A stretch of DNA of 40,563 nt from a virus: IMG/VR virus record IMGVR_UViG_3300006738_000023, positions 1-40,563 of that record, one strand, 5' to 3'. A model generated the notes under the pieces. It was not told the DNA's origin and did no database searches. It was given only the letters and a program-made list of their open reading frames with translations. Every line of letters starts with the position of its first letter. Position 1 is the stretch's first letter. The position numbers were made by a program, and so were the translations under genes. This document shows positions 1 to 36,118 of this stretch, one piece after another.

Positions 1-63
1 CGCCGCTGCCGCGCCAGCAGCTGCGCTGCCAGCAAAGCCGGTATACGTGCCGGTGGCAGCAGC
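1..63. repeat. 63-bp exact terminal overlap with 40501..40563 (circular assembly overlap)
   Basis: Bases 1-63 are identical to 40501-40563. The overlap lies in frame inside a single minus-strand ORF, so it is an assembly closure artefact and not a biological terminal repeat. Unique molecule is 40,500 bp. Confidence 0.9.
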
Positions 64-3218: not shown

Positions 3219-3581
3219 CTATCTATCATACGGTGCGCAGAAGGCGTCCCATGCCTCTTGAAAGCCCGGTGTTTCGCCTTCCAAGCCTACAACGTCACCG
3301 CCTCCGCTAACGTACCTCTTAAAACCTGTATAGCCACCAAAGGTGTTTTTGGAGTTTACCTCTCCGCAACCAATGGCATTCCCGTTAGACTGGCCGGGAA
3401 AAAACCCTCTAAATTCTGCTGAGTCAGGGTCTTTCAAAACTCCTCTAACAGACTGCTCTACCAATGATTTAACCTCAAAATAACGATTACCTGCAGAAGG
3501 CTTAGCATCATCGTCATCGGTGATACACCCCTTAATCGTCATTATGAAAACCACCAGTAGGATTAACCCTAATACCTGCAT
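3219..3581 (-). CDS. Moron: secreted lipoprotein (superinfection-exclusion candidate)
   Basis: Signal peptide plus lipobox (MQVLGLILLVVFIMTIKGC). Strong SD (AAGGAGG) 6 nt upstream. G+C visibly lower than flanks. Contains LKDPDSAEF and GEVNSKNTFGGYTGF motifs typical of small bacterial lipoproteins. Inserted between the GT chaperone and the tape measure. Confidence 0.7.
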   Translation of the reverse strand: MQVLGLILLVVFIMTIKGCITDDDDAKPSAGNRYFEVKSLVEQSVRGVLKDPDSAEFRGFFPGQSNGNAIGCGEVNSKNTFGGYTGFKRYVSGGGDVVGLEGETPGFQEAWDAFCAPYDR

Positions 3582-6626: not shown

Positions 6627-7208
6627 TCACTTTTTCTGTCCTAGCAGGTAATCCATACGCCCGCTGAACTGCCGGGGCAGATCCTCACGCACCATTTCTT
6701 GCGCGCTATTGATCACGCTTTCATTGGCCACCATGCCGGGGATTGAGGGGCCGAACTGTATGCGCGGGTCACTGGCGTTATCCGCTTTATCGGCCCGGCG
6801 CAAAATGCGGCCCTTGGCGTACCAGCCGCCCTTGACCAGCTGCCGCCCGGTGTCTTTACGCACTAGCACGCTGGCACCACGCCGCCGGGTTTTGAACTGC
6901 TTACCCCGGCGGCTGGTGGCCACCACCACGCGAGCGCGGGTGGTTTTGGGCTTGAACTGATCCAACGGCAAGCGCCGCCCCACGTACAGCAGCGAGCGCG
7001 ACGCATCCCGCCGCGCTCGGTCGATCTTGAGGCGCTTTTTAATCTCCCCCGCCGTAATGTAGTAGTCGTCGCGCACTTCGCGTGAAATGAACGTGGCAGC
7101 TTTAGCCTGGGTGCGGTCTAACGCTTGGCTAAACGCCTTTTCCACTAGCTTGGGGTCATAGCGATTCTTGAGCGCCTGTAGCTGGTTAATGTCGTATTCG
7201 TAGCGCAT
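6627..7208 (-). CDS. Minor tail protein Z-like (tail completion)
   Basis: 193 aa, the same size as lambda gpZ. Shares the basic core pattern (RARVVVATSRRGKQFKTRRRGASVLV...KGGWYAKGRILRR...EDLPRQF versus lambda RVVLSRRRRRKKGQRSSLKGGGSVLV...NGRWHVMQR...ERLPKEL). Confidence 0.65.
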   Translation of the reverse strand: MRYEYDINQLQALKNRYDPKLVEKAFSQALDRTQAKAATFISREVRDDYYITAGEIKKRLKIDRARRDASRSLLYVGRRLPLDQFKPKTTRARVVVATSRRGKQFKTRRRGASVLVRKDTGRQLVKGGWYAKGRILRRADKADNASDPRIQFGPSIPGMVANESVINSAQEMVREDLPRQFSGRMDYLLGQKK

Positions 7209-7513
7209 TACACCACCTCGATACGCACAAACGCGCCGTCGTCCTCCACCGGCCCGTTATATCGCCAGCGTTTGCCCGCTACGGTGAACTCAGCGCGCCG
7301 GTCTACATCGCCCACCATGGCCACCGGCAGCAGCAGGGTTTTCACCCTACGGCCTATGCCGTTCTCGTCGATTACTTCAAACTCGTTATCGAACTGATAG
7401 GGAACGTCGGGCACGACCGGCCCGGTGCCGGGGTGGTAGGTGCAAAGGCCATCGCTGAGGTGCTTCACAACCGCCTCATTGAGACGGTTGGCGTACTGGT
7501 CAAAGAAGGCCAT
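7208..7513 (-). CDS. Head-tail joining protein (gpFII position)
   Basis: 101-aa ORF between the capsid and Z-like genes. ATGA-type coupling to the next gene. Synteny-based call. Confidence 0.5.
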   Translation of the reverse strand: MAFFDQYANRLNEAVVKHLSDGLCTYHPGTGPVVPDVPYQFDNEFEVIDENGIGRRVKTLLLPVAMVGDVDRRAEFTVAGKRWRYNGPVEDDGAFVRIEVV

Positions 7514-7523
7514 GGGGCACCCG

Positions 7524-8528
7524 TTAGACGGTCGCGCCAGACACCAGCTTGATACTGGCTTTCGGGCGGGTGTTGAGGTGCGCCGGGTTAGACTGCGCCT
7601 CCAGCTCTACCCCCTTATCATGGTCAAGCAGCTTGGAAGAACTGTAGAACGGTAGCCCCAGCGTGTTGACCGTTGCACCATAGTCACCCGGTGCGAAGCG
7701 GCTCAAGAACAGCTCTTCGCTACCCATCGGGAACGCGTAGGCTTCTTCATCGGCAACAAACTTAGTGGTGCCTACCGTACCCCGGTAGCGCTCCCACATC
7801 AGCCCGCCAAACGGGAAGGCTTCGCGGCCATCCGCCCGCAAACGTGAGCCGTTTTCCCAGCGTTCATAGGCAGTTTTAACCGCCTTGTGGGTGATAAATT
7901 TGCGCCAGAAATTCTTACCACACAGCACCGTCGCGCCATCAAAGAACAGGTCGCCCAGCCCCAGCTCCATAGCCTCTAAAATATCCAAGCACTTACCCTG
8001 CAGCTCGGTAGCGGCGGTACCCAAATCCATCGGCACCACGGTTTGGGTCATCCCGAAGGCTTGGAACAGGTCATAAAGCACTGTGCCGTTGGCATCGATC
8101 ACTTGCCCTTTCACAGCGCCTACCCGGTGGAACTCATGGGTAACGTCAATACGGCGGGCCATCATGGCCAAGCGGTTATTGATCACTACCTGCAGTTGCT
8201 CGGCACTATCCTGAGAACCAAAGGCGCGGACGTTCTGCACCTCATCGGCCAGGATGGTGGCCGTCGTTGGCAGGTGCGCCGTCATAAACGGCACCCCTGT
8301 ACGCTTGGTGCCCGCCACGACTTGGCCCACGCCACCGCGCGGCTTATTTTCTACCAGCGCCAGCTTGTCGCCATCCTTCTCAATAACGACTTGCGTAGTG
8401 GTAATGCCCTGGGCGTCAAATACGCCCATCTCGCCAAGGCGGCGGGGGGCGTATTCCACTTCGTTAATGGATGCGGTTAGGGATTTAAGGCTAAACGCAT
8501 CGCTTTCAAAAATGCTATTTCCAGACAT
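7524..8528 (-). CDS. Major capsid protein, lambda gpE family
   Basis: 334 aa counted from the ATG at 8528 (GAGAGAGG upstream). Size and position match lambda gpE (341 aa), directly after a gpD-like gene. Confidence 0.8.
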   Translation of the reverse strand: MSGNSIFESDAFSLKSLTASINEVEYAPRRLGEMGVFDAQGITTTQVVIEKDGDKLALVENKPRGGVGQVVAGTKRTGVPFMTAHLPTTATILADEVQNVRAFGSQDSAEQLQVVINNRLAMMARRIDVTHEFHRVGAVKGQVIDANGTVLYDLFQAFGMTQTVVPMDLGTAATELQGKCLDILEAMELGLGDLFFDGATVLCGKNFWRKFITHKAVKTAYERWENGSRLRADGREAFPFGGLMWERYRGTVGTTKFVADEEAYAFPMGSEELFLSRFAPGDYGATVNTLGLPFYSSSKLLDHDKGVELEAQSNPAHLNTRPKASIKLVSGATV

Positions 8529-8581
8529 GGGGTGCCTCTCTCTCAATAAGGGGTATACGGGTGGCTCAGCAGGGCGGGGTG

Positions 8582-8947
8582 TTAATCGCGGACGATCACG
8601 CCACGGCTTACCAGATCGTTAGTGCCAGCGGTAATGGCGGCCTCGTCGGCACCCTCTGGCCAGCCCAGCAGCGCGCCGTGAACCTCGCAGGCGCGCACAT
8701 GCACGGTAATCGGCTGCGGGGCTTCGCTGGCATCGGCTGCCCCGTAAAGCACGGCTTTAGCTACCTCTGTACCATCGACGGCGGCAGGCGCTAGCGGCAC
8801 GTAGTTGCCTGCGCCGTTGAGCGCCAGCACAGCACCCGCTGGCAGGTTGCCACTGGCCAGGGTGCCCACTTCACGGGAACGGGCACCATTGGCTTCTGAT
8901 AAAACGTGTTCACCCGTACGGGTGCCTTCGGTGTAGGTCGTTGGCAT
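8582..8947 (-). CDS. Head decoration protein, lambda gpD-like
   Basis: 121-aa ORF between the protease/scaffold and capsid genes. Gly/Ala-rich with a gpD-like C-terminal pattern. Confidence 0.7.
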   Translation of the reverse strand: MPTTYTEGTRTGEHVLSEANGARSREVGTLASGNLPAGAVLALNGAGNYVPLAPAAVDGTEVAKAVLYGAADASEAPQPITVHVRACEVHGALLGWPEGADEAAITAGTNDLVSRGVIVRD

Positions 8948-10138: not shown

Positions 10139-11635
10139 TTAGTCGTCCTCGTTATCTTCGTCGGTGGTGGCCAGGGCTTCAAGGGCTTTTTGAAGCGCCC
10201 CGTTTTTGGCGGTAATGCGCGGGTCTGAATCCAGCGCCAGCCCGTGTTGGTCGGCGCTTCGGTTGCCCTTGGCAATCTCGGCATCCAGCAGGTCGAGCGA
10301 CCAGCCGCGCTCTCCGGCTTTCTCGCTGCGTGGGGCAAAACCGGCGCGCACTTCCAGTAGGTCGGCGCTGACTTCTTTCAGCGGGTCCACCCAGCTCCAC
10401 TTCGGCGCAATCCAGTCGATGGCCAGCAGCTCTTTACGCCGCTGCCAGTAACCGGGAATGAGTAGCGCCCCGCTGGTCACGGCCACATCTAGCCATTTAG
10501 CCGCCACGCGGCGGCACCACTGGTGAACCATCAGCGAGGCTTGCAGCATTTCAGCCCGGCGGCGGAACTCTAAAAGCCCGGCCCGTATTGAGCTGTAGTT
10601 GACGCCTTTTAGGTCGCCGGTCATCTGCTCGTAGGTCAGGCCAGCGCCCGCGCCCACCGCTAACAGCTCGGTACGCAGCCACTCGGTGTATTGCCCTTGA
10701 ATATCGGGCGGCGTTGAGAACGTGACCTCTTCGTCATCTTCCAGGTAGTGGACGCCGCCGGGGGTGAACTCTTCAAAGCGGTCAACTTCACCGGGCACTT
10801 TCACAAGCTCGCCAAACGATGGGCCCTCCTCTTCGGGGTCTTGGTTTGTCTTACGTTTGACAAACGCGCCGAACAGCTGCGCCAGCTTTTGCCGGGCTAG
10901 CGTGGCGTCCTGCATTTCGTCAATTTCGTACAGCCGCACGATAACGCTGGTTAGCTCAGGCACCCCGCGCAGCTGGCCGGGCCGGGTCCGGCGGTACATG
11001 TGAATAACGTTATCCGCTGGCACCGGCACCCGTTCGTTATACGCGGCGGTGAGCTGTTCGTTGGGGTGATAGCGCCATAGGTGGTAAGCGGTACGCTGGC
11101 CGATGCCGTTAAACTCGATGCCCATCTTGATCAAGCGGCCATCAAAGCCACGTGAGTAGGCAGAGTCGAGGTGCTCCGATTCCACTACCTGCAGCTGCAG
11201 GGGTACGCTTAGGCCGTCGCTTGTGCGCCGGTAACGAAAGCGCCCTAGCACCTCCCCGGCTTCAAACTGTGCGCCAGCGGCTAACGCCTGTTGGCCGTAG
11301 AAATTGTCTACGCCGTCCGCGTCGCTTTCCTCTACCCACTGATCCCAAAGCGCCTGTATGACCGGGTTGCCCCACTGGGGCTTAATGCCGGTGCCCACTA
11401 GGTTGGAGACGTATTTCTCTTTGGCACTGGCGGCGTAGGCGTTGTTTCTAATGGCGTAGTGGCTGCGCGCCTGCAGGATGGGCAGCGAGTTTTCAATAGG
11501 CCCGTTGGGGCCGGTAACCATCGTTCCTTTGCCTGCCATACGGCGGCGGGTGCTGCCGCCCTCGTAGTAGGCGCGCACAGGCACTTGCCGCCCATCCCGC
11601 ACGGTCATACGGATTCGGGGCTTATTGGCGATCAT
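10139..11635 (-). CDS. Portal protein, lambda gpB family
   Basis: 498-aa ORF between gpW-like and protease genes. Acidic C-terminus (TTDEDNEDD). Confidence 0.8.
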   Translation of the reverse strand: MIANKPRIRMTVRDGRQVPVRAYYEGGSTRRRMAGKGTMVTGPNGPIENSLPILQARSHYAIRNNAYAASAKEKYVSNLVGTGIKPQWGNPVIQALWDQWVEESDADGVDNFYGQQALAAGAQFEAGEVLGRFRYRRTSDGLSVPLQLQVVESEHLDSAYSRGFDGRLIKMGIEFNGIGQRTAYHLWRYHPNEQLTAAYNERVPVPADNVIHMYRRTRPGQLRGVPELTSVIVRLYEIDEMQDATLARQKLAQLFGAFVKRKTNQDPEEEGPSFGELVKVPGEVDRFEEFTPGGVHYLEDDEEVTFSTPPDIQGQYTEWLRTELLAVGAGAGLTYEQMTGDLKGVNYSSIRAGLLEFRRRAEMLQASLMVHQWCRRVAAKWLDVAVTSGALLIPGYWQRRKELLAIDWIAPKWSWVDPLKEVSADLLEVRAGFAPRSEKAGERGWSLDLLDAEIAKGNRSADQHGLALDSDPRITAKNGALQKALEALATTDEDNEDD

Positions 11636-15256: not shown

Positions 15257-15722
15257 CCCGCACCCCCTCTAAACACATTTCACGTTCAGCGGCGCGGCGT
15301 CTTACCAGCCCACGCAACCGCTCACCCCCGGCATACACCCAACGGGAAAGCTCATTACACGCGCCCTCAAGATCCCCGGCGTTCGCCTTACGTGCCAGCG
15401 TCGAGCGCTGCAGCTTGCCCGCACCAAGGTTGAACGTGAACGACACGAACGCGGCGCGGGTAGCGTCAGGCATCGGCACGGTAATGATGCGGTCCACCGC
15501 GTTCAGCGCCTCACGCATGTCCTGCTCTAGCAACTCGTCACACTGCGCCGGGGTGAGCGTTTGGCCTGGGGCTGCCGTGGCCGTGTGCCCAGTGCATACC
15601 GTCCACACGCCCACAGCGTCGCGGTAGCTCTCCAGCTTGGTGCCCTCGAACGGCACAATGATGCTTGCGGCTATCGCCATTACCGCGCCCACCCCGGCGC
15701 TAATCGCTCGTTTGTTAGCCAT
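15156..15722 (-). CDS. SAR endolysin, GH24 lysozyme
   Basis: Catalytic E-x8-D-x5-T (FEGTKLESYRDAVGVWT). Weakly hydrophobic Gly/Ala-rich N-terminal segment (AISAGVGAVMAIAASIIV) typical of signal-anchor-release domains. Start chosen at ATG 15722. Confidence 0.8.
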   Translation of the reverse strand: MANKRAISAGVGAVMAIAASIIVPFEGTKLESYRDAVGVWTVCTGHTATAAPGQTLTPAQCDELLEQDMREALNAVDRIITVPMPDATRAAFVSFTFNLGAGKLQRSTLARKANAGDLEGACNELSRWVYAGGERLRGLVRRRAAEREMCLEGVRDAEQAANEADSVGAGDSAGRWHWFDVATQWITG

Positions 15723-15993
15723 TGCGCCCACCCCGCCGGTTGTCAAAGTGCTTCCAAATATCGAACGCCAAGCGCAGCCCGACGAACACCAAGCCGCCCA
15801 CGCTCACCACATCAGCCGTCACCACGTGAACGCCTCCCATCTCAATCAGCGGCATGTTCAGCAGCGACACCACCTCACCGGGCGAGGGTGAAATATCCAT
15901 GACGGCGGCCGCGCTGGCCTTAGACGTTTGCGACACAGCAGACACGCCACTACCGCCCACGTACGCAATCACACGGCCAGCGTCGACTTTCAT
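15715..15993 (-). CDS. Holin / pinholin candidate
   Basis: First gene of the lysis cassette. ATG at 15993 has GGTGA upstream. C-terminal TM (VVSVGGLVFVGLRLAF) followed by a charged tail. Overlaps the endolysin start. Confidence 0.5.
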   Translation of the reverse strand: MKVDAGRVIAYVGGSGVSAVSQTSKASAAAVMDISPSPGEVVSLLNMPLIEMGGVHVVTADVVSVGGLVFVGLRLAFDIWKHFDNRRGGRNG

Positions 15994-16012
15994 AAGCAAT
16001 CACCAAATCGCA

Positions 16013-16048: not shown

Positions 16049-16140
16049 TAAACACGGAACATTAAAGGGCTTGCTGCGGGGCTAAGGGAACGTAAATACC
16101 CCACATGCCATAAACGATAGATCAAACTATCACTGATTGC

Positions 16141-16155
16141 AACACGTAACGTGTT
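16141..16155. promoter_or_regulatory. ACAC-N5-GTGT operator-like palindrome downstream of int
   Basis: AACAC-GTAAC-GTGTT has the same half-sites and spacing as the cI/cro operators. Confidence 0.4.
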
Positions 16156-16240
16156 AAATGCCCCTCAAGAGTGTTACACACCAGCATGCCAACCACCATC
16201 ACGGCACGTGCTGGATACTCTTAACAGATAGGTTTGCTCA

Positions 16241-17509
16241 TTACCCCGCCGCCCCTTGCCACCACTGGGGCCGGTCGCTGTTGTGATAAAACGACGATCT
16301 TGGTTCTGTCTCGGTCAGAAACACGCTAAAACCACGCTCACACAGCCATTTATGCCAGCGCTCCAACGCGTCGAGAATCTGCCGCTCTGCGTAGGTGTGA
16401 ATGTAAGTACGATCTAGTTTTGTTAGGGCGTGATTTAACAGCAGCTCACCGGCTAGATACTCGACCCCGAGGTCAGCCCATGTAGTCCTGGCGAGCTTAC
16501 GCAGATCGTGAGAATGCCACCGCGCACCGCTGGCACTCACCACCAGATCAAACACAGCTGAACGGGATAACGGCTTACCCTTCGATGCACCAGGAAACAG
16601 ATACACGCCCCGGTAACCGTTCGCCTGCTGATATGCTCGGTAACGGGTCAACAGCGTGACAGCCATGGGCGTTAACGGCAGGCGGTGTTGTCGTTTGGAT
16701 TTTGTATTGTCGGTGGGGATAGTCCACGTGCGCGCGTCGAGATCGAACTGCCCCCACTTGGCTAGCCGCGTCTCACTGATACGGGTGCCGAACAGCAGCA
16801 TCAATAACAGCAGAAAACACCCCGGCGGCTCGCACGAACGCAGGGCGCGTATCACCTCGGGCACATCGGCAGCGGTCAGCGCACCCGCTTTAGCTGGGGT
16901 TTTCGCGTCGATGAAGTCGCCCACATTCACCCCGGCGAACGGGTCAGCATCCAACAGGTTCAGCTTACGGGCTTGCTTGAACGCGGCCTTGATCACCCCA
17001 AAAATCAGGCGCACATAGGCCACGGAATAATGCTCCTGTAGCGGCCACACCAACCCGCTATCGATAGACGCGGGCGTAATGCCCGCCAGCGGCTGGCCAC
17101 CGAACAGGGGCAATAGGTGCCGATTCACGGCGGTTTTGATCGATGATTTTCGAGTAGCGGATAACCGGCCATGGGATGCCGAACGGTCACGATACCAACA
17201 CAGCAGGTCGGCCACGGTTTCCCACGCATCGACGCCCACCGGCCCGGCAGGGTCAAGCGCCAGCTTGGCTTGAATCTCCGGCAAGCGCGCCAGCAAAGCG
17301 CGGGTGGTCAGCTCCGGGTAATTGCCCACCCGGTGCCAGTGGTCACGCCCACCGGCATAGCGCACCACGTACCAGCTCGCCCGCTCACGGCACGCATGAA
17401 AACGCACCCGCACCGGGTAGCGCGGGTCGCGTAACTGAGTAATCGAAGGGTCTTGTATGTGACGCTTGATAGCCGCGTCAGAGAGAGTAACCGCGAGGGT
17501 TTTGGGCAT
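16241..17509 (-). CDS. int: Tyrosine integrase, P4-like
   Basis: 422 aa. Catalytic signature: GTRISE (Arg), HDLRK (His-x-x-Arg), LLNH, and RTYIHTY (Tyr). N-terminal arm-binding-like domain. Confidence 0.9.
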   Translation of the reverse strand: MPKTLAVTLSDAAIKRHIQDPSITQLRDPRYPVRVRFHACRERASWYVVRYAGGRDHWHRVGNYPELTTRALLARLPEIQAKLALDPAGPVGVDAWETVADLLCWYRDRSASHGRLSATRKSSIKTAVNRHLLPLFGGQPLAGITPASIDSGLVWPLQEHYSVAYVRLIFGVIKAAFKQARKLNLLDADPFAGVNVGDFIDAKTPAKAGALTAADVPEVIRALRSCEPPGCFLLLLMLLFGTRISETRLAKWGQFDLDARTWTIPTDNTKSKRQHRLPLTPMAVTLLTRYRAYQQANGYRGVYLFPGASKGKPLSRSAVFDLVVSASGARWHSHDLRKLARTTWADLGVEYLAGELLLNHALTKLDRTYIHTYAERQILDALERWHKWLCERGFSVFLTETEPRSSFYHNSDRPQWWQGAAG

Positions 17510-21051: not shown

Positions 21052-21608
21052 TCGACGGCCTCTCTGAGTCGTTGGGCGCGGTGCGCCTGCAAAATGTCGT
21101 GCAACACGGTCACCGTGGCCGCATCGCCCTGGCCTAGCGCCGCCTCGACCGCCGCGCTCATATCCCCCACAGTCACGCGGGAAACGCACCAGCGGGCGAA
21201 ATAGCGCAGATTATCGGGGTGGTTCGCCACCTGGGGCGGGTAGGCCAGATCATTGATAAACCACGCCGCCCACTGCTCGGCGCGGTGGTAAAGGGTGTCG
21301 TCGTTGGGTGCCTGGGCAGGGTCTACGCGCTCAAGCGTGGGGCAATGCACGGTGAGTGATTCGCCATCGTCCTCGACGATCAACAACCCCTGCGCTTGGT
21401 AAAACGCCATGAACTCACGGGCGCTATCGTCGTCGGCCTGCATCAAATCGCCCCACGCCACGTAGGTTTTAGCCACCGGGCCGGGGGTCGCTGCCAGCGC
21501 CTCCAGCACCAACAAATAGCGGGCATAGCCAATCAACCCATACTCAGCCGCCACGGTGGCCACGCCCTCGCTCTGCGCCAACCCGGCAGGATGAACGAAC
21601 GCGCTCAC
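21042..21608 (-). CDS. Hypothetical early protein (possible replisome-organizer-like N-terminus)
   Basis: 188-aa ORF, second gene of the cro-side operon. AEYGLIGYARYLLVLEAL weakly recalls DUF4373/DnaD-like N-terminal domains. Confidence 0.35.
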   Translation of the reverse strand: MSAFVHPAGLAQSEGVATVAAEYGLIGYARYLLVLEALAATPGPVAKTYVAWGDLMQADDDSAREFMAFYQAQGLLIVEDDGESLTVHCPTLERVDPAQAPNDDTLYHRAEQWAAWFINDLAYPPQVANHPDNLRYFARWCVSRVTVGDMSAAVEAALGQGDAATVTVLHDILQAHRAQRLREAVECY

Positions 21609-21829
21609 GCCGCCACCCCATCGCGCTCAGCCAGCACCGCCGCCCAAGGGCCATAGATGCCGTTATAATCCACCGCACCAGCGGTCAACCGCACGATGCG
21701 CCCAGCGGTGCGTAAACTCGGCGCACGATCAAAGCGATACCAGCTCATCACCGTACGGGGCTTCTCGCTGAGTAGCGCGCCCGCACAGTCCGGCCCGCCC
21801 ACTTGATCAATCCAATCATTTAGCAACAC
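21605..21829 (-). CDS. Cro/YdaS-like HTH protein
   Basis: HTH pattern GGPDCAGALLSEKPRTVMSWYRFDRAPSLRTAGRIVRLTAGAV. The track ORF start (21967) lies upstream of the operators, so the start was moved to the GTG at 21829. The exact start is uncertain. Confidence 0.55.
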   Translation of the reverse strand: MLLNDWIDQVGGPDCAGALLSEKPRTVMSWYRFDRAPSLRTAGRIVRLTAGAVDYNGIYGPWAAVLAERDGVAA

Positions 21830-21842
21830 TTTAGCGCACCAT

Positions 21843-21925
21843 TTAACACGAAGTGTGTTAAGCCTAGCGCGAAGATTGCCCACGTACAAAGGTTTTTTTA
21901 TTCCACACTTACACGCTTTGTGTAT
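21843..21925. promoter_or_regulatory. Divergent cI/cro control region with two ACAC-N5-GTGT operators
   Basis: TTAACAC-GAAGT-GTGTTAA at 21843..21861 (perfect 7-bp arms). TTACAC-GCTTT-GTGTAT at 21909..21925. Confidence 0.7.
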
Positions 21926-22020
21926 TACTATTGCCTGAGAGGTAATATTTACCCGAAAATTAATCACCGAAGGCGCACACGGACGGCATCAACGGCGGGA
22001 TAGATAACGGGAAGCGGAAA

Positions 22021-22674
22021 ATGTCACAGCAAAGCGACAGGCAGGACAAAAAAGAGCTAATCGCACAGCGGCTAGTGGAAGTGCGCACCCACTTAGGGTG
22101 GTCGATCCGCGACGCAGTCGAAGCGCTCGGCTACGTGCGTTCTCGTTATACCAACTGGGAACTCGGCATTCGCATGCCCGGCTATCAGGAATTGGAAGAC
22201 ATCGGCAACGTAACTGGCTGCAATCCCGGCTATTTTGTCGGCTGGACAAACCGCATGATCGACAGCAGCTACGTCGTACTAGACCGCACCACGGTTAAAA
22301 CCCGCGTTGGCTCGATCACCGTGCAAAACGCCACCGATGTAGCCGCCTACCGCGACGACTACCTCGCCGAAAAAGGGCTAAAGCCCAGCAGCATTATCAC
22401 CGTCAAAGCCGAAGATGACGCCATGGAAGGCGTAATTAGCAAGGGCGATTTAGCCCTAATCGACATGAGCCGCAAACCCGATGCCGTGCGCGACCTGTTC
22501 GCTATCCTCGTGGGTGACCGCATTTGGCTACGCTGGATACGCCCGGAAATCAACGGCAGCTACACCATGAGCGCCGAAAACAGCCACCAATACCCCGATG
22601 AAACCCTCACCACCGGGCAGCTACAACAGCTCAACATCATCGGCCGCGTCGCCATCATCGAGCACGAACGCTAA
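22021..22674 (+). CDS. CI-like repressor (XRE HTH plus S24 LexA-like fold) with a degenerate catalytic dyad
   Basis: N-terminal HTH (LIAQRLVEVRTHLGWSIRDAVEALGYVRSRYTNWELG). The C-terminal domain aligns with lambda CI (GDRIWLRWIRPEINGSYTMSAENSHQYP versus [26 protein letters not shown]). However it has DDAMEG where GxSM is expected, and no Lys at the FKKL position. Confidence 0.8.
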   Translation: MSQQSDRQDKKELIAQRLVEVRTHLGWSIRDAVEALGYVRSRYTNWELGIRMPGYQELEDIGNVTGCNPGYFVGWTNRMIDSSYVVLDRTTVKTRVGSITVQNATDVAAYRDDYLAEKGLKPSSIITVKAEDDAMEGVISKGDLALIDMSRKPDAVRDLFAILVGDRIWLRWIRPEINGSYTMSAENSHQYPDETLTTGQLQQLNIIGRVAIIEHER

Positions 22675-22710
22675 GCGCCAGCCCAGCGGAAAAACACCCC
22701 ACTCCTAGAA

Positions 22711-22736
22711 CGGCACCCACAAAGTGCCGTTTTTTT
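22711..22736 (+). terminator. Rho-independent terminator after the repressor gene
   Basis: CGGCAC-CCACAAA-GTGCCG followed by TTTTTTT. Confidence 0.8.
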
Positions 22737-22747
22737 GGCTTGCCGAA

Positions 22748-22784
22748 TAACACAATTAGTGTCACTCTTACACAGACTGTGTAA
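22748..22784. promoter_or_regulatory. Two ACAC-N5-GTGT operators upstream of the plus-strand early operon
   Basis: TAACAC-AATTA-GTGTCA at 22748..22764. TTACAC-AGACT-GTGTAA at 22768..22784 (perfect 6-bp arms). Confidence 0.65.
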
Positions 22785-22801: not shown

Positions 22802-23059
22802 ATGACCACGCACCCGATAGCCACCGTTACCGCCTCGCCCCCCATCGCCTGCACCCCGCAAGCGCTGCACCAAGCCCTGCGCGAAAGCGTCGCTATCGCG
22901 TGCGGGCTCGAAAAAATGGCCCAATGCGCCCTGGATGAAGGCGAGTACCCAGCGGAAGAACTCGACAACCTGTTTGCTCTCATTAACCGCCACCGACGCG
23001 ATTTAGAAGAGATCAAAGCCGCGCTGGCCGAACTCGCCACGGGTGTCCACCATGACTAA
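22802..23059 (+). CDS. Hypothetical protein, first gene of the early operon
   Basis: 85-aa ORF directly after the operator pair. Confidence 0.55.
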   Translation: MTTHPIATVTASPPIACTPQALHQALRESVAIACGLEKMAQCALDEGEYPAEELDNLFALINRHRRDLEEIKAALAELATGVHHD

Positions 23060-23462
23060 CCCCACCCAGCGCCAGCCATGGCGCGACGACGACGCCCTAG
23101 CCCAACCCGGCCAAGCCCTCAGCGAGCAAGAGCTAGCCCACCTGCTCGCCCTCGCCAACGGCAACGCCCCCAGCGCCATCACCGCCATCAACGGCACCAG
23201 CCGCGCCCAACAGCAGCAGCTCGAAAGCAGCCTGCGGGCCAAGCTCGGCGCGTTCAGCAAAGCGCACATCATCACCCGCGCGTTCGTGCTGGGCGTGCTG
23301 CTACCTCGCTGCCTCACCGTGCTACTGATCGTCGCCACACTCGGTAATGGCGCCCAACAAGATGCCATCGCCCAGCGCCTACCCCGCCGCCCCACGCAAA
23401 CCGCCAGCGCCCGCCTAATGCGTACTCAGCGGGGCAGTAGCGCAGGGGGTCGCCGCACATGA
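23052..23462 (+). CDS. LuxR/GerE-type HTH protein
   Basis: LSEQELAHLLALANGNAPSAITAINGTSRAQQQQLESSLRAKLGAFSKAHIITRAFVLGVL fits the GerE HTH pattern (L..rE...L.l.a.G....I......S...v......i..KLg.......). ATG at 23052 overlaps the upstream stop. Confidence 0.5.
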   Translation: MTNPTQRQPWRDDDALAQPGQALSEQELAHLLALANGNAPSAITAINGTSRAQQQQLESSLRAKLGAFSKAHIITRAFVLGVLLPRCLTVLLIVATLGNGAQQDAIAQRLPRRPTQTASARLMRTQRGSSAGGRRT

Positions 23463-24304: not shown

Positions 24305-25471
24305 ATGTGGTTTACCAATATTACCGTTTACCAGCTCCACAACGCCCCAACGATCGACAGCATAACGCTGCATGAAACGCTGCAAGCAGAAGCCGCCAAG
24401 CCGTTAGGCAATACCGATGCCAAGCGCCACGGCTGGACACCCCCAGCAGGCCGCGCCAGCAACGCCTATCTGCACGAAAGCCAAGGCCACCGCCTGCTCA
24501 GCATGCTCAAACAGCAGCGCATGCTGCCGCCCAAGGTCGTCAAAGCAGCGGTCGAGGAAAAGGTCGCGGAAGTCGAAGTCAACGAAGGCCGCAAGGTCAC
24601 GCGCAAAGAAAAAACCGACTTCAAAGAACAGATCACCGAGGAGCTGCTACCCCGCGCCTTTATCGATAGCATCAAAATCGACGCATGGTGGGACGTAGAA
24701 AAAAACCGCATCATCATCAACAGCGGCAGCCGCGCCCGCTGCGAAGAGCTGTTAGACCTGCTACGCGAAACCCTCGGCAGCCTCAAAGCCACCCCGCTCA
24801 GCACCCAAACGCTACCCATCCGCGCCATGACCACCTGGGTAAGCGACGCCCAAAGCCGCCCCGCCAACCTGCAGCTAGGCGACAAAGCCACGCTCAAAGC
24901 CAAAGGCGACGACGGCAAAATAGCCGCCACGCAAGTGGATCTCGACAGCGACGAAATACAGCAGCTACTCGAAAGCGGGCGGCAAGCCACCAACCTCGCC
25001 ATCACCATTGATGAGCGCGTCAGCGGCGTACTCACCGACAGCCTGCAGCTCAAAAGCCTGCGCTTTAGCGACCAGCTGATCGAGCAAGCCGACATGACCG
25101 AAACAAAGAGCGACGATGGCGACGACCCCATAGCGCGCATAGAAGCCGATTTTTTCCTTATGGCCAACGCCCTAAGCGACACGCTGGATAGCCTCGTTCA
25201 CATGCTGGGCGATGAAACCGTGCGTGAAGTAGCCGAAGAAAAAGGCACCCGCCCCGACGACAGCCACCCCGGCGAACAGATCGGGGGCTTTGAGCCCAAC
25301 GACGCCCTCACACCCGCCGCCATCCAGCTCAGCAAAACCGAGAACGGCAACATCACCGTGACCCGCCTGCAGCGCCACTTCAAAATCGGCTACAACCGCG
25401 CCCAGCGCCTGCAAGAGTACCTAATCAGCAAAGGCCACATTCCCAACCCCTACGGGCAGCCAGCCCCATGA
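24305..25471 (+). CDS. rdgC: RdgC-like recombination-associated protein with a C-terminal FtsK-gamma-like winged helix
   Basis: MWFTNITVYQL...GWTPP...LLPRAF...LLDLLRETLGSL parallels E. coli RdgC (MLWFKNLMVYRL...GWVPP...LLPRAF...LALLRKSLGSL). The last 40 aa (TRLQRHFKIGYNRAQRLQEYLISKGHI) match the FtsK gamma motif (lQRrlrIGYnRAarl...lE..Gi). Confidence 0.8.
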   Translation: MWFTNITVYQLHNAPTIDSITLHETLQAEAAKPLGNTDAKRHGWTPPAGRASNAYLHESQGHRLLSMLKQQRMLPPKVVKAAVEEKVAEVEVNEGRKVTRKEKTDFKEQITEELLPRAFIDSIKIDAWWDVEKNRIIINSGSRARCEELLDLLRETLGSLKATPLSTQTLPIRAMTTWVSDAQSRPANLQLGDKATLKAKGDDGKIAATQVDLDSDEIQQLLESGRQATNLAITIDERVSGVLTDSLQLKSLRFSDQLIEQADMTETKSDDGDDPIARIEADFFLMANALSDTLDSLVHMLGDETVREVAEEKGTRPDDSHPGEQIGGFEPNDALTPAAIQLSKTENGNITVTRLQRHFKIGYNRAQRLQEYLISKGHIPNPYGQPAP

Positions 25472-26252: not shown

Positions 26253-26505
26253 CGCTACTCTGCCCGTGTCGCTGCAAAATCAGCGACCGGGTTTAGCAGC
26301 TCGCAACTCTTTCAGGCGCACAGCGCCCCGTTTCATCGTGTAGGCGTTTTTTTACGCCCGCAGGATGCACTATGGCGGGCCGTGCGTGGGGCACCTTCGG
26401 GTGCGCCGGTGTTCCTGAAGAGCCGGTCTGCTAACCCGCGTACGGTTCGCCACCATTGATTAGCAGCATAGTGGCGAACTCCAAACATCTTCAGGAGTTA
26501 CCGCA

Positions 26506-27288
26506 ATGTCTATACCTACCATTTCCGTTTCTGGTGTTTCCCTTCCCTATATCGAATACCAGGGCCAACCAGCTGTAACCTTCGCCATGATCGACGCAGC
26601 ACACCAGCGACCGCAAGGCACAGCAAAACGTAACTTTAGATCGAACAAACGCCACCTTATTGAAGGTGAAGACTTCTATGTTGCTGATTCTAAAAGCTTG
26701 GACGAAATTCGTCCCAGCTATCCGGGCCTATTCCCAGCGATGGCCACAAGCATGTTTTTCTTCACCGAAACCGGCTACCTCATGCTGGTCAAATCGTTTA
26801 CCGACGACCTCGCTTGGCAAGTACAGCGCCAGCTAGTGAAAAGCTATTTCCGCGTAAAAGGGGCGATGCAGCCCACCGCCGCCGAACCCATCCCCGCGCC
26901 CATCGACCACCGCCAGCGGGAACAGCTTACCAACGCCGCCAACGCCGTGTTTCGCAATTTCGGCGGCATGCGCCAAAGCGCCACCGGCTGGTTTTATAAC
27001 GGCGTCCGCACGGACTACTGCCTAAAGCGCATCGAAGATTTAAGCCAAGACGACTTCCCGGCAGTCATGGAACGCCTGCAAGCCCTACGCCCCAAGGTGC
27101 GCCAATACGAAGATTTTAGGTATGACTTCCAACAGTCGTTTTTAAAAGAGGTCGTAGGCGAAGGCCAGCCCTACACGGCATGGATCAGCAAGCTAGCCGG
27201 TGGCCAACACCACATCGGCCAGCGCCCCAACTGGAAAGCCATCGCCAAGCAGGTGCTAATCCACAACGGCCTGCTCACCAAACAGTAA
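26506..27288 (+). CDS. ORF6N/KilA-N-type DNA-binding domain protein (antirepressor-like)
   Basis: The N-terminal 120 aa (QPAVTFAMIDAAHQRPQGTAKRNFRSNKRHLIEGEDFYV...FTETGYLMLVKSFTDDLAWQVQRQLVKSYF) fits the ORF6N/Ant N-terminal pattern. AGGAG 8 nt upstream of the ATG. Confidence 0.6.
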   Translation: MSIPTISVSGVSLPYIEYQGQPAVTFAMIDAAHQRPQGTAKRNFRSNKRHLIEGEDFYVADSKSLDEIRPSYPGLFPAMATSMFFFTETGYLMLVKSFTDDLAWQVQRQLVKSYFRVKGAMQPTAAEPIPAPIDHRQREQLTNAANAVFRNFGGMRQSATGWFYNGVRTDYCLKRIEDLSQDDFPAVMERLQALRPKVRQYEDFRYDFQQSFLKEVVGEGQPYTAWISKLAGGQHHIGQRPNWKAIAKQVLIHNGLLTKQ

Positions 27289-27492: not shown

Positions 27493-28137
27493 ATGGGATA
27501 CAAGATTGCCTTCGTGAGCCAAAAGGGCGGCGTCAGCAAAAGCACCCTAAGCCGGGCGCTGGGCACCACCTACGCCGCCGCTGGCTGGAATGTGAAAATA
27601 GCCGACCTCGACATCAACCAGTCTACCTCGTTTACGTGGCTGCAGCGCCGCCTTAAAAGTGGCGCATCGCCGGAAGTCGCGGTTGAAACCTTCGGCACGG
27701 TGGCCAGCGCTCTAAAGGTAGCTGACACCTACGACCTAATGATTTTCGACGGCGCGCCCCACGCCACCAAAGCCACCGCCGAAGTGGCCCGGCTTGCGGA
27801 TCTCGTCGTTCTACCCACCGCGCTAAGCGTTGACGACCTTGAACCCACCGTAAGGCTGGCCAACACACTCACCGGCCAAGAAGGCGTGCCCATCGACCGT
27901 ATCGCTATTGCGCTGAGCAAAGTGGGCAAGAGTAAAACGCAGCTGCAGGATGCCCGCGCCTACCTCGCCCATACGCCCTATTTTGTACTCGATGGCCAAG
28001 TACCCGAGCGCGACGCGTTTGTATTAGCCCAAGACAAGGGGCTGTCGATTGTTGAAACCCCCTTCAAAGGCCCGAAGGCCCAAGCGGATGAACTGATACA
28101 AAACATCATCAACCGCTTTGAATCACTTGTTAATTAA
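27493..28137 (+). CDS. parA: ParA-family partition ATPase (small, type Ib)
   Basis: Deviant Walker A SQKGGVSKST, A' IADLD, Walker B LMIFDGAP. 214 aa with no N-terminal HTH. Confidence 0.9.
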   Translation: MGYKIAFVSQKGGVSKSTLSRALGTTYAAAGWNVKIADLDINQSTSFTWLQRRLKSGASPEVAVETFGTVASALKVADTYDLMIFDGAPHATKATAEVARLADLVVLPTALSVDDLEPTVRLANTLTGQEGVPIDRIAIALSKVGKSKTQLQDARAYLAHTPYFVLDGQVPERDAFVLAQDKGLSIVETPFKGPKAQADELIQNIINRFESLVN

Positions 28138-30751: not shown

Positions 30752-31717
30752 CTAGTGTCGTCGCTGCCGGTCTAACCACTCTTCATACGGCGGGTATTTG
30801 ATGCGTACCAGCTTGTTAACCTCGGCATAGCTGGCACCGGGGTTATCGCGCACCACCTGGGCAAAGTAGGCGTTTGCCTCTTGGTTATAGCGGCGCTGCA
30901 GTTCTTTTTCATCGTTGGCGTCGGGTAGATCCTTCTTACCCCGGCGCTGCTTCTGCATCGCTCTGGGGCCGCTGCCTGCCATCGCTAGGCGGCTACGGGC
31001 CTGGGCGGCGTCGTACGCCTTGGGGTGCTGCTCGCGGTGCTTACGGCGGGCTTTCTTAATGCGGTTGCTGCACCAGTCGCGGAACTCCTTAAACTTCTGG
31101 TAGCCCACACGCCCCAGCGCCAGCAGAAAATCCGGGTTGAGTAGCTTCACAGCAGGCCGGGCGCGCTTAGTACCGTCGGCTTTCACCTCATGCTGCAAAT
31201 GCACGGTGAACGCGCCAGCGAGCTTCAAGCGCCGGAAGGCGCGCCAAAAGCGTTGGCTAGGCTCTGGGGCTTCGGGGGTGCTGCCGGGTGCCAGCAGGCC
31301 CGCCACGCGGGCAATTTCCGCACAGCTGCGGTGCTTGAAACCGCCATCGGGCAGGGGGGTGCCCACACGCAGACTGGCGAACTCGGTAAACTGGATAATG
31401 GCAGAAAGTACCAGCGACTCAGCAGCGCGGGCCTCGGATCGGTTACAACGGGGGTTACCATCGGCGTTCGCCTTACCGTTCAAATTCGCCAGGGTGGGCA
31501 ATAGGCCGGGGCTGTTGTAATAGGCTTTGGCACCGTCCACCAGCGCTTGCAGGGTGGCGGGTAGCCGCCCCTTTTTCAGCGGTTGGCAATAGCGGTCAAA
31601 TTCCCCTTTAGCAGGGTCGTGGCCACACCGGTTACCGGTTCCCCAGTATTTGCCGGGGTGTTCGTACGGCACGCGCCCCCACTTGCGGGGCTGCGCGTTC
31701 TCTGCTGCAGCATCCAT
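30752..31717 (-). CDS. repA: Plasmid-type replication initiator, IncFII RepA-like
   Basis: ATG at 31717 (the track start at 31723 is TTG). The central region (RSCAEIARVAGLL...SQRFWRAFRRLKLAGAFTV...ARPAVKLLNPDFLLALG) parallels R100 RepA (ITTLAIECGLA...ITRATRALTFLSELGLITY...YIPTDITFTSALFAALD). Basic C-terminus. The replicon context also supports the call. Confidence 0.55.
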   Translation of the reverse strand: MDAAAENAQPRKWGRVPYEHPGKYWGTGNRCGHDPAKGEFDRYCQPLKKGRLPATLQALVDGAKAYYNSPGLLPTLANLNGKANADGNPRCNRSEARAAESLVLSAIIQFTEFASLRVGTPLPDGGFKHRSCAEIARVAGLLAPGSTPEAPEPSQRFWRAFRRLKLAGAFTVHLQHEVKADGTKRARPAVKLLNPDFLLALGRVGYQKFKEFRDWCSNRIKKARRKHREQHPKAYDAAQARSRLAMAGSGPRAMQKQRRGKKDLPDANDEKELQRRYNQEANAYFAQVVRDNPGASYAEVNKLVRIKYPPYEEWLDRQRRH

Positions 31718-31773
31718 TCGCAAAATCTCGCTTGAGACTTGCCCGCGTCTTGTGCAGCAGTTAAACTCTGAGG

Positions 31774-31854
31774 AGTCGGTTTTGTGCCCCAGCCTTTAAG
31801 GTTTGCTGCCCAAAACATCCGAGAAGCCCCAGCGCCAACTGGGGCTTTTCTTTT
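31774..31854 (+). ncRNA. Candidate countertranscript (CopA-like antisense RNA) against the repA leader
   Basis: Plus-strand TTGCCC (31739..31744), 17 nt, TAAACT (31762..31767). Plus-strand terminator AAGCCCCAG-CGCCAA-CTGGGGCTT followed by TTCTTTT at 31824..31854. The predicted RNA is about 80 nt and fully complementary to the repA 5' leader. Confidence 0.4.
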
Positions 31855-31960
31855 GGGTGTCTATCTAGTTAATTTGTATGTCTTTTTTGCCTTCTAACCA
31901 ACGCCGCCCGGCGCTGGTCATCAACTCACTGTTTGCCAATCCTAGCATTACAAAAGCGTT

Positions 31961-31979
31961 TTGACACGAACTGTGTTAA
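31961..31979. promoter_or_regulatory. ACAC-N5-GTGT operator upstream of the repA leader
   Basis: TTGACAC-GAACT-GTGTTAA has 6/7 symmetric arms and the same architecture as the cI/cro operators. Confidence 0.5.
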
Positions 31980-32005
31980 AAAAATTTGCTCAAAACGCTC
32001 TGGGC

Positions 32006-32233
32006 CTAGGTGAATGCGGGGCTAGTGGGGCCGTGTTTGCCCGCGCGCTGCAGCTCATGCCCCAGCGCATCGCGCACCATGGCTAGAATCATGTGGCTGC
32101 CCGCGTGCGACTCTTCGCCGGTCACCTGCATAAATTCCATCATCACATCAATGTTCTGCAGCGTATCGCGCTGGTTAATGCCTACCAGTACGTTAGTGTT
32201 ATATCGCTGCGTCGTTCCCTGCTGCTCGCTCAT
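32006..32233 (-). CDS. 75-aa protein upstream of repA (CopB-position gene; SOS-controlled antirepressor candidate)
   Basis: ATG at 32233 with GGAGG 8 nt upstream (MSEQQGTTQRYNTNVLVGINQRD...). A LexA box lies 41 nt upstream. Confidence 0.55.
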   Translation of the reverse strand: MSEQQGTTQRYNTNVLVGINQRDTLQNIDVMMEFMQVTGEESHAGSHMILAMVRDALGHELQRAGKHGPTSPAFT

Positions 32234-32273: not shown

Positions 32274-32289
32274 CTGTTTATACATACAG
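32274..32289. promoter_or_regulatory. LexA (SOS) box CTGT-N8-ACAG
   Basis: CTGTTTATACATACAG has perfect CTGT/ACAG arms and an AT-rich 8-nt spacer. It is the only such site I found in the window. It overlaps candidate -10 elements (TATAAA, TATGAT) on the minus strand. Confidence 0.65.
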
Positions 32290-35248: not shown

Positions 35249-36118
35249 TTATAGAATCTCCCGTAGGGCGTAGGAATTGGCGTAGGTGCCAAAGTAGGGG
35301 TGGCTCAGTGGGTTTACCTGCACTTGCCGCGCTAGGATCGTGGTTGCAAAACTCTCTGCCGTGACCTGAGTGCTTTCGGCGTAAAGAATTTCACCGTGTA
35401 GGCCAATCTTGCGTTGGGCGGCCAAGGCCCGCCGGAACCCTTCTTCTCGGTCTAAATGCTCTAACGCAAACGATACGGTGCGCTTGGGGGTGGCGGGGTC
35501 GGCGTACTCGGTGCGGTTGGCATCGCCTGCGGTTTCAAACTGCGTATCAATGTCGTAGCCCCACTGGCAGCCGTAGCTCATGTTGTAAGTGGGTTGCCAT
35601 ACATCCGAGATAAACACCCGGCCTAGGCTGATAAAGCCCGCCGGGTTGCTGCTGTCGTCAAACTCCACGCGAACGGCGCGGGCTATTTGCACTGTGGGCA
35701 AAAACAGCGTGGCCAGCGGCGTGAATGAAGCGCGGTCTTCGTCGTCAAATTCGCCGCCCCAAAAATTGTCGTATTCCCACTCCAGCTCGCTGGTGGAATA
35801 CACCGGGGGCCACACCCGTAGCCAGTCGCTTTGCCACGCTACTTGCGTGGCGGCATCGTCGAAGTAGACGGTAATCCGCCATGTGGCCACGGCGCTTAGG
35901 TTGTGCGCGGCCACCGCCACCACGCCCACTGGCAGGAAGCGCGGCAGGGTAATCAGCACCTGCGTATTCGCGGGGTTGAGCCCATTAGAACGGGCCTGCT
36001 CGGCTAGCGTGGGGTCTAGCAGTTTGCTAGCGGGTAGCGCCGGTTCCCAGCCCCCACCGCTCACCGCCGCGCCGTTGGCGTGGTTGGGCCAACACAGGAT
36101 GATTTTTCCCTCTTCCAT
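35249..36118 (-). CDS. Tail tip/baseplate protein
   Basis: 289-aa ORF in the distal tail block. Call is by position only. Confidence 0.45.
   Translation of the reverse strand: MEEGKIILCWPNHANGAAVSGGGWEPALPASKLLDPTLAEQARSNGLNPANTQVLITLPRFLPVGVVAVAAHNLSAVATWRITVYFDDAATQVAWQSDWLRVWPPVYSTSELEWEYDNFWGGEFDDEDRASFTPLATLFLPTVQIARAVRVEFDDSSNPAGFISLGRVFISDVWQPTYNMSYGCQWGYDIDTQFETAGDANRTEYADPATPKRTVSFALEHLDREEGFRRALAAQRKIGLHGEILYAESTQVTAESFATTILARQVQVNPLSHPYFGTYANSYALREIL

Follow-up and report, generated by a model that had tools for sequence, protein, structure and literature searches.

The viral sequence IMGVR_UViG_3300006738_000023, analysed here over its full 40,563 nucleotides and referred to as the window, encodes at 22021..22674 (+) a 217-residue protein in which the open reading frame (ORF) list, Pfam, AlphaFold2 and Foldseek together indicate an XRE-type helix-turn-helix (HTH) domain followed by a degenerate S24-like C-terminal domain. 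A divergent Cro-like gene, a terminator of its own and flanking operators suggest that this protein would behave as a prophage repressor, and the residues needed for self-cleavage of S24 proteins are replaced in it. Lying 10 kb from the repressor gene, between tail genes and a rep-like gene, is an ORF of 75 residues (32006..32233, −) preceded by a perfect LexA box; its product, predicted to form a helical hairpin, is a candidate SOS-induced antirepressor.

Scanning the whole window for the 17-bp operator pattern TWACAC-N5-GTGTWA revealed six operator-like palindromes where 0.21 were expected; none of the shuffled sequences used for comparison reached six. On the left of the repressor gene stand a TAACAC-N5-GTGTTA site (21844..21860) and a palindrome in the divergent promoter region (21909..21925), and on its right stands a pair spaced 20 bp apart (22748..22764 and 22768..22784), the second member of which, on reading the sequence, is a perfect palindrome just upstream of the rightward operon (ORF 22802..). 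The sixth site (31962..31978) lies between the small LexA-box ORF and the rep-like gene, and its sequence is kept in a plasmid of Halomonas qaidamensis (CP080628). The fifth, CAACACGTAACGTGTTA, is isolated between the integrase gene and ORF 15715..15999 (16140..16156), a position from which the repressor would seem to control a late or lysis transcription unit directly.

The gene divergent from the repressor (21605..21967, −), which would open a leftward lytic operon, matches phrog_409 'transcriptional regulator' at E 0.002; we call it Cro-like mainly from its position, and its true start is probably internal. Downstream of the repressor gene, a terminator scan and reading of the sequence identified an intrinsic-terminator-like hairpin with a T-run (22707..22733, +). 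When the DNA of the immunity region was compared with phage genomes, only short, irrelevant matches to Synechococcus phages came up, and no ImmA/IrrE-type protease or other trans-acting repressor-cleaving peptidase was present among the ORFs scanned with Pfam and PHROGs.

Catalytic positions of the repressor

The DNA-binding domain (residues 15-72; 22063..22236, +) matches Pfam HTH_31, HTH_19 and HTH_3, and its profile matches in the PDB include ImmR and the N-terminal domains of the P22 C2 and 434 repressors. The S24-like pseudo-peptidase domain (residues 93-210; 22297..22650, +) belongs to the S24 family as a homologue both by profile, matching Pfam Peptidase_S24 (PF00717) with 38.4 bits against a cut-off of 23.3, and by fold. 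An AlphaFold2 model of the repressor, with a predicted local distance difference test score (pLDDT) of 87.4, retrieved coliphage 186 CI, the LexA proteins of T. maritima and M. tuberculosis, lambda CI and UmuD' in Foldseek, with template modelling (TM) scores of about 0.7 to the C-terminal domains of LexA, UmuD' and lambda CI. The initial annotation had described this domain as aligning well with lambda CI and LexA, which holds for the homology and overstates the sequence similarity: phmmer against PDB sequences returned HTH proteins only and no S24 protein, HTH matches dominated when the full-length family profile was compared with the PDB, and with a profile restricted to the C-terminal domain LexA and UmuD came up at no better than E of about 1, a match that served for register and not as proof. 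The S24 relationship is secure only via Pfam and the modelled fold, the sequence likeness to solved S24 proteins being remote.

To place the catalytic positions, we aligned the repressor with lambda CI through catalytic relatives as a bridge, verifying A111, G112, S149 and K192 of lambda CI by numbering and adding the CB repressor of phage N15 to the same alignment. Lambda S149 corresponds to A134, K192 to R171 and A111-G112 to V96-G97 of the window repressor, and a HMMER alignment to M. tuberculosis LexA gave the same register (DDsM/GDSM, vwvR/ATVK). Ala134 (codon GCC, 22420..22422, +) at the nucleophile position is surrounded by A-E-D-D-A-M-E-G, so that the motif reads D-D-A-M rather than G-[DN]-S-M, with Asp132 in place of the Gly of GDSM. 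Arg171 (codon CGC, 22531..22533, +), at the position of the Lys general base, lies within L-R-W (residues 170-172; 22528..22536), and no lysine occurs in residues 153-217 as read from the protein. Val96-Gly97 (22306..22311, +) occupies the position of the Ala-Gly scissile bond, where both lambda A111-G112 and the V.ASAG.G motif of catalytic relatives align, and neither Ala-Gly nor Cys-Gly is present anywhere in the 217 residues. By residue alignment, then, the Ser nucleophile, the Lys base and the Ala-Gly or Cys-Gly bond of an active self-cleaving S24 enzyme are all missing. We also considered VAAY (residues 107-110) as a relic of VAAG and ruled it out, since catalytic relatives likewise carry A-[FY] there and their SAG motif sits upstream of it, aligned with VKTRVG of the repressor.

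These correspondences bear out the initial annotation, which had placed Ala134 at the nucleophile, had found no lysine at the equivalent of lambda Lys192 (22531..22536, here R171-W172) and had noted that the linker contains no Ala-Gly; the refinement is that the residue aligned with the general base is an invariant arginine and not a hydrophobic residue. The proposed check of residue correspondence, when run, placed Ala and Arg, and not Ser and Lys, at the catalytic positions. A literature search for the K156R substitution yielded nothing usable.

Searching 1.84 billion representative proteins with the C-terminal-domain profile in HMMER returned 4817 matches at E <= 1e-3, and we aligned the best 150 of these together with the close homologues of the repressor. 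Of the 154 closest relatives, 72 fall in a Lys class and 82 in an Arg class. The Lys class carries Ser in the nucleophile column throughout (72/72), Gly at the first position of GDSM in 70/72, Met after the nucleophile in 72/72 and AG or CG in the cleavage column in 59/72, whereas in the Arg class Ser is found in 41/82, the Gly is Asp in 75/82, Met follows in 62/82 and AG occupies the cleavage column in 5/82. Fisher's test for Ser by class gives p = 1e-14, a value that overstates independence, as the sequences are mutually related. Among 17 close homologues, the nucleophile column is S, A, V or T, and R171 is invariant.

As judged from these alignments, the catalytic loss is a clade-wide signature and not a private mutation. 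The class pattern indicates that, once the Lys had been replaced, the Ser and the scissile bond were no longer under selection, and it leads us to conclude that the Arg class is, in all likelihood, non-catalytic. An Arg for the Lys, D-D-x-M for G-D-S-M and the absence of Ala-Gly would accordingly serve as a sequence rule for recognising this putatively non-cleaving clade, and the near-perfect co-variation of the Gly-to-Asp and Lys-to-Arg replacements suggests an Asp-Arg pair that fills the former active site. Taken together, the loss of all three requirements for self-cleavage and the coherent signature of the clade make RecA-stimulated autocleavage, which had looked impossible in the initial annotation, very unlikely; the repressor is very probably non-cleaving.

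A LexA box and a small gene in related elements

The perfect LexA box CTGTATGTATAAACAG (minus-strand reading; 32274..32289) abuts a −10-like hexamer, and in an AT-rich intergenic region the order along the minus strand is the TATGAT hexamer, the box and then the GGGGAGG-N8-ATG start of the 75-residue ORF. From its sequence, LexA would be expected to bind this site. On the 3' side of the ORF follow a repressor operator, a hairpin and a gene for a 323-residue protein. The window holds two perfect CTGT-N8-ACAG sites; the other one (35692..35707) lies inside a tail gene (35249..36118), and, as 9/100 shuffles gave at least two sites, we treated it as chance.

A perfect LexA box with an ORF of 67-78 residues was found at the same syntenic position in 7/7 related elements from five genera, namely the window, the H. 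qaidamensis plasmid (of which 20 kb were read), Pseudomonas phage PARCL1pr, Vibrio phage PhiPS02, the E. ictaluri plasmid pEI-2083-2, the P. aeruginosa plasmid pPAC1.3b and a V. alginolyticus plasmid. In the six elements other than the window, the order is tail module, perfect LexA box, 67-78-residue ORF and a gene for a protein of 280-335 residues. The box is the only perfect one in 4/6 whole elements (PARCL1pr, PhiPS02 and the E. ictaluri and V. alginolyticus plasmids), with one more in the window and two more in pPAC1.3b, and the intergenic DNA flanking it has diverged between genera. The repressors of all seven elements are of the Arg class, reading W[LIV]RW[IV].

The 75-residue protein has five close homologues, all unnamed, and a name for the family was absent from every source searched. 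A tblastn search with it against phages found nothing, and BLASTP against the corresponding PARCL1pr ORF was not significant; homology is visible only profile-to-profile, hhalign relating the Halomonas-group small proteins to the syntenic ORFs of other genera with a probability of 81.6% and E 1.1e-5. The small proteins share N-x-L-[IV]...[DC]-T-[ILV] and a central HxG, and AlphaFold2 predicts a two-helix hairpin with a core pLDDT of 80-88 for the 75-residue protein.

Proposed induction circuit and its alternatives

A second candidate inactivator is encoded closer to the repressor gene. Rfam identifies an a1/b1 target of C4 antisense RNA at 26255..26307 (+; RF03163, 58.2 bits, gathering 46.7) and a C4-type antisense RNA at 26368..26457 (+; RF01695, 78.7 bits, gathering 45), followed by a gene for a 260-residue ORF6N-type homologue of the Ant antirepressor (26506..27288, +) that matches phrog_4608 'anti-repressor' at 2e-39 and Pfam ORF6N, and resembles N15 gp30 Ant at a BLASTP E of 6e-5. 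Between the C4 RNA and the ant start lie 'ttagcag' and 'cttcagg' repeats resembling a2 and b2, and the Shine-Dalgarno sequence of ant (caggag) falls within the b2-like 'cttcagg', so that a C4 RNA with a/b targets upstream of ant, as in P1 immI and N15 immA, is present. The 48-nt gap between the end of C4 (26457) and the start of ant (26506) holds no icd-like ORF. The C4/ant module is kept in the H. qaidamensis plasmid; no Rfam C4 match was found in PARCL1pr or PhiPS02, and the module is therefore accessory and not a conserved partner of the Arg-class repressor.

We propose the following circuit. The HTH domain would bind the TWACAC-N5-GTGTWA operators flanking its own gene and at two further sites, one of them before the rep-like gene. 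The C-terminal domain would descend from an S24 self-cleaving domain, catalytically dead with its fold kept, presumably for dimerisation and cooperativity, and, with its catalytic and scissile residues replaced, the repressor would be unable to read RecA* directly. Host LexA would instead sit on the box overlapping the promoter of the 75-residue gene; on SOS induction LexA would be cleaved and the 75-residue protein made, which would bind the repressor and strip it from its operators, opening the leftward lytic and rightward early operons. The C4 RNA would block translation of Ant, making the Ant module (26255..27288) a second, SOS-independent route against immunity. On balance we favour this chain as a whole, in which a non-cleaving repressor is paired with a LexA-controlled SOS antirepressor; its weakest step is the proposed identity of the small protein as the antirepressor.

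The closest parallel is N15, a plasmid prophage that, like the window, encodes ParA. Its CB repressor has been reported as non-proteolytic (PMC10432266) and, as cited in two later papers, is inactivated by the LexA-controlled AntC, which is needed for induction (Mardanov & Ravin 2007, cited in PMC3121763 and PMC4488713). CB (gene 38) combines HTH_3 with a Peptidase_S24 match of 35.9 bits and shows GNQI at the Ser position and IQRL at that of the Lys, thus sharing with the window repressor an HTH domain joined to an S24-like domain without the Ser/Lys dyad. In both elements a LexA box lies directly upstream of an ORF of about 75 residues far from the immunity region; in N15 (NC_001901) the box at 39564..39579 stands 24 nt upstream of a 75-residue ORF (13 nt to a TTG start). 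The N15 ORF matches phrog_10889 'anti-repressor' and, on the strength of that match and of the citations above, is presumably antC. A repressor operator also precedes a replication gene in both, the CB operator before repA in N15 and the site at 31962..31978 in the window, and the immA locus of N15 (CA RNA, antA, icd, antB) resembles the C4-type RNA and Ant of the window as a secondary immunity system.

The two elements differ in that the dyad is replaced by Gln/Gln in N15 and by Ala/Arg in the window, which indicates independent decay of the dyad, and in that the N15 LexA-box ORF is represented in PHROGs (phrog_10889) whereas the window small protein is not. The window, unlike N15, is apparently circular and encodes a tyrosine integrase, with no protelomerase detected and no icd seen, and its host is Halomonas-like rather than E. 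coli. With an HTH and S24-like repressor lacking the dyad and a predicted LexA box at a small ORF outside the immunity region, the window element would, by analogy, reproduce the tripartite logic of N15. The induction design itself is already established, and domain decay of the same kind is visible in N15 CB. The N15 ORF that follows the box (39592..39831, 75-79 residues) is unannotated in RefSeq.

Other systems share parts of this arrangement. The 186 CI structures (7jvt, 2fjr) were the top Foldseek matches of the full-length window model (E 2e-7 to 4e-6), although the global TM score is only about 0.4 and the identity 9-11%; 186 CI is not known to have a detectable S24 sequence signature. 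The 186 antirepressor Tum has 146 residues, one half of which is DinI-like, whereas the window small protein has 75 residues and no family match. Lambda CI, P22 C2, LexA and UmuD have the two-domain architecture, S24 fold and cleavage-site hairpin of the window repressor, and differ from it in that the Ser, the Lys, the Gly of G-D/N-S-M and the Ala-Gly are all replaced in the window. The window module resembles P1 and P7 immI in its C4 and a1b1 matches above gathering and in the a2/b2-like repeats that overlap the ribosome-binding site of ant, and differs in having no icd-like ORF between C4 and ant; the primary repressor of P1, C1, is not known to be related to S24 proteins.

Inactivation of the repressor from a distance has been described in both coliphage 186, where the LexA-controlled antirepressor of CI is encoded outside the switch region, and Salmonella Gifsy-1, -2 and -3, where an uncleaved repressor is paired with a small antirepressor (GfoA, GftA, GfhA) whose LexA-repressed unit lies far from the immunity region; neither has the repressor architecture of the window (PMC3121763). 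The Gifsy repressors, of about 136 residues, lack the C-terminal domain altogether (PMC3121763); they share the induction logic proposed here and differ in that the window repressor retains an entire S24-like domain, albeit an inactive one. The suggestion in the initial annotation that induction must use another route, such as an antirepressor as in 186, the Gifsy phages and N15, finds support in this predicted genomic context, comprising the LexA-box ORF in 7/7 elements, the C4/ant module and the absence of the dyad from N15 CB.

Several observations weigh against the proposed circuit. Non-cleavage is read from residues alone; half of the Arg-class relatives retain Ser and one, from E. ictaluri, retains GDSM, so that residual chemistry is conceivable in these members. 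The 75-residue protein has no Pfam or PHROG match, its comparison with the N15 LexA-box ORF is not significant (hhalign E 0.19, probability 0.3%), and, with its gene directly upstream of the rep-like gene, it may have a different role, for instance in boosting replication under SOS or in controlling copy number. The seven elements share one backbone, so that the 7/7 co-occurrence is partly inheritance, and a search for a Lys-class element on the same backbone, to serve as a control, found none; the weakest plasmid match read, that of V. alginolyticus, again proved to be an Arg-class element with a LexA-box ORF. Finally, the window also has a genuine Ant homologue, and this protein could be what actually inactivates the repressor.

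If so, the repressor would still be non-cleavable, with the C4-RNA-controlled Ant (26506..27288) inactivating it and the 75-residue ORF doing something else, such as driving transcription into the rep-like gene, controlling copy number or modulating RecA or cell division in a DinI-like manner. In keeping with this, the homologue matches several PHROG 'anti-repressor' families and ORF6N and is weakly similar to N15 gp30, the C4, a1b1 and a2b2-like layout is complete in the window, and the small ORF, directly upstream of the rep-like gene, has no known family. We nevertheless judge it unlikely, because the Rfam C4 family is not matched in PARCL1pr and PhiPS02, both of the Arg class, and no ant-type gene is annotated in these two phages or in the Edwardsiella, P. 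aeruginosa and V. alginolyticus plasmids, all five of the Arg class, whereas all seven elements have the LexA-box ORF. The C4- or CA-controlled Ant of P1 and N15 is, moreover, an anti-immunity function and is not known to be the SOS sensor, and a terminator-like hairpin and a repressor operator stand between the small ORF and the rep-like gene of the window.

Alternatively, the element may not be SOS-inducible through its repressor at all, the latter being removed by host proteases (as Mu c is by ClpXP), by dilution or by some other signal, with the LexA box belonging to an unrelated moron. Many phage-plasmids are poorly inducible, and the interaction between repressor and small protein is a predicted one; yet the box has been kept at one syntenic position across five genera despite the diverged intergenic DNA around it, the small-protein family co-occurs with the Arg-class repressor and the arrangement closely parallels N15, which makes this explanation quite improbable. 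A domain that remains a slow self-cleaving peptidase, using Arg171 with another nucleophile so that RecA*-dependent induction persists, would account for the retained fold and cleavage-site hairpin, for the basic character of Arg and for the frequency of Ser among relatives. With Ala at the nucleophile and Val-Gly at the scissile position, and with the nucleophile column drifting between S, A, V and T among relatives of 47-80% identity, which indicates no selection for catalysis, we regard it as highly improbable. Slilaty and Little reportedly found in 1987 that S119A and K156A abolish LexA cleavage, and Arg, whose pKa exceeds 12, makes a poor general base.

A more speculative and, in our view, doubtful extension of the LexA-controlled antirepressor circuit is that the domain is a repurposed sensor, in which the former active-site cleft, filled by the co-varying Asp132-Arg171 pair and with the pseudo-substrate hairpin kept, would be the docking site for the new SOS-induced helical-hairpin family. 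Were this true, a large clade, for which the nearest relatives already give at least 82 clusters at 50% identity, represented in Halomonas, Vibrio, Pseudomonas, Aeromonas, Edwardsiella and Delftia phage-plasmids, would have turned a cis-acting RecA* sensor into a trans-acting, LexA-dependent one, and members retaining Ser or GDSM may be intermediates that use both routes.

Repressors of this kind carry annotation labels such as 'S24 family peptidase' or 'LexA family transcriptional regulator', which invite the assumption of lambda-like, RecA-triggered self-cleavage. What is new here is the Arg-class signature for putatively non-cleaving 'S24' repressors, together with an unannotated, conserved family of LexA-box small proteins as antirepressor candidates. 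Linking the clade to a specific LexA-controlled gene makes the induction circuit of widespread marine and clinical phage-plasmids testable and contributes a further candidate family of SOS antirepressors, of which few are on record (Tum, AntC and the Gifsy proteins); as the concept is already established, the gain is incremental.

The phage-plasmid element and its other genes

Nucleotides 1..63 of the window recur unchanged as 40501..40563. Given this 63-nt terminal overlap, the assembly, of about 40.5 kb, closes into a circle, as would fit either a phage-plasmid or a phage genome with circular permutation. The window encodes a ParA-type partition ATPase (27493..28137, +; Pfam and PHROG), a hallmark of plasmid prophages, a tyrosine integrase (16241..17509), RdgC and a complete head and tail module with terminase, portal and tail ORFs. 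The nearest record is the 45.9-kb H. qaidamensis plasmid, whose repressor is 92.6% identical and whose DNA matches at about 81% identity over 61% of the 20-33 kb segment. Plasmid records with a homologous repressor number 16 and come from Pseudomonas, Aeromonas, Edwardsiella, Vibrio, Delftia and other genera, all typed as non-mobilizable, 12/16 of them being 36-46 kb and the largest 82 kb; isolated phages (PARCL1pr, PhiPS02 and many Vibrio K-phages) have such repressors as well. The terminal overlap, ParA, the virion module and relatives found as plasmids together indicate that the window belongs to a phage-plasmid lineage, here with a Halomonas-like host.

The 323-residue protein encoded downstream of the small ORF (30752..31723, −), which we call rep-like by position only, matches phrog_20951, a family of unknown function, and has no match to any Pfam family; its gene is syntenic in all related elements, and the protein is the leading candidate for a replication initiator in this lineage. 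Between the small ORF and this gene, at about 31820..31990 (−), lies the hairpin aaaagccc..gggcttctcgg, which is also found in the Pseudomonas (3480..3560), Vibrio (16400..16440) and H. qaidamensis (10230..10410) stretches, and the Halomonas elements share further conserved blocks in the same interval. The hairpin, for which no Rfam family was found, could be a terminator or attenuator, a regulatory RNA or an origin element.

Among the products of the rightward early operon are a small sigma-factor-like or LuxR-like regulator (23043..23462, +; phrog_3282) and a fusion of an RdgC homologue with an FtsK-gamma-like tail (24305..25471, +). Beside its tail-fibre genes, at 7081..8762 of the stretch read, the H. 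qaidamensis plasmid has a diversity-generating retroelement (bAvd and reverse transcriptase); in the window we noticed no reverse transcriptase. In Vibrio phage PhiPS02, the coding sequence annotated as 'cI repressor protein' (8196..8684) appears to be truncated at its 5' end, as the tblastn match and the HTH start at about 8058.

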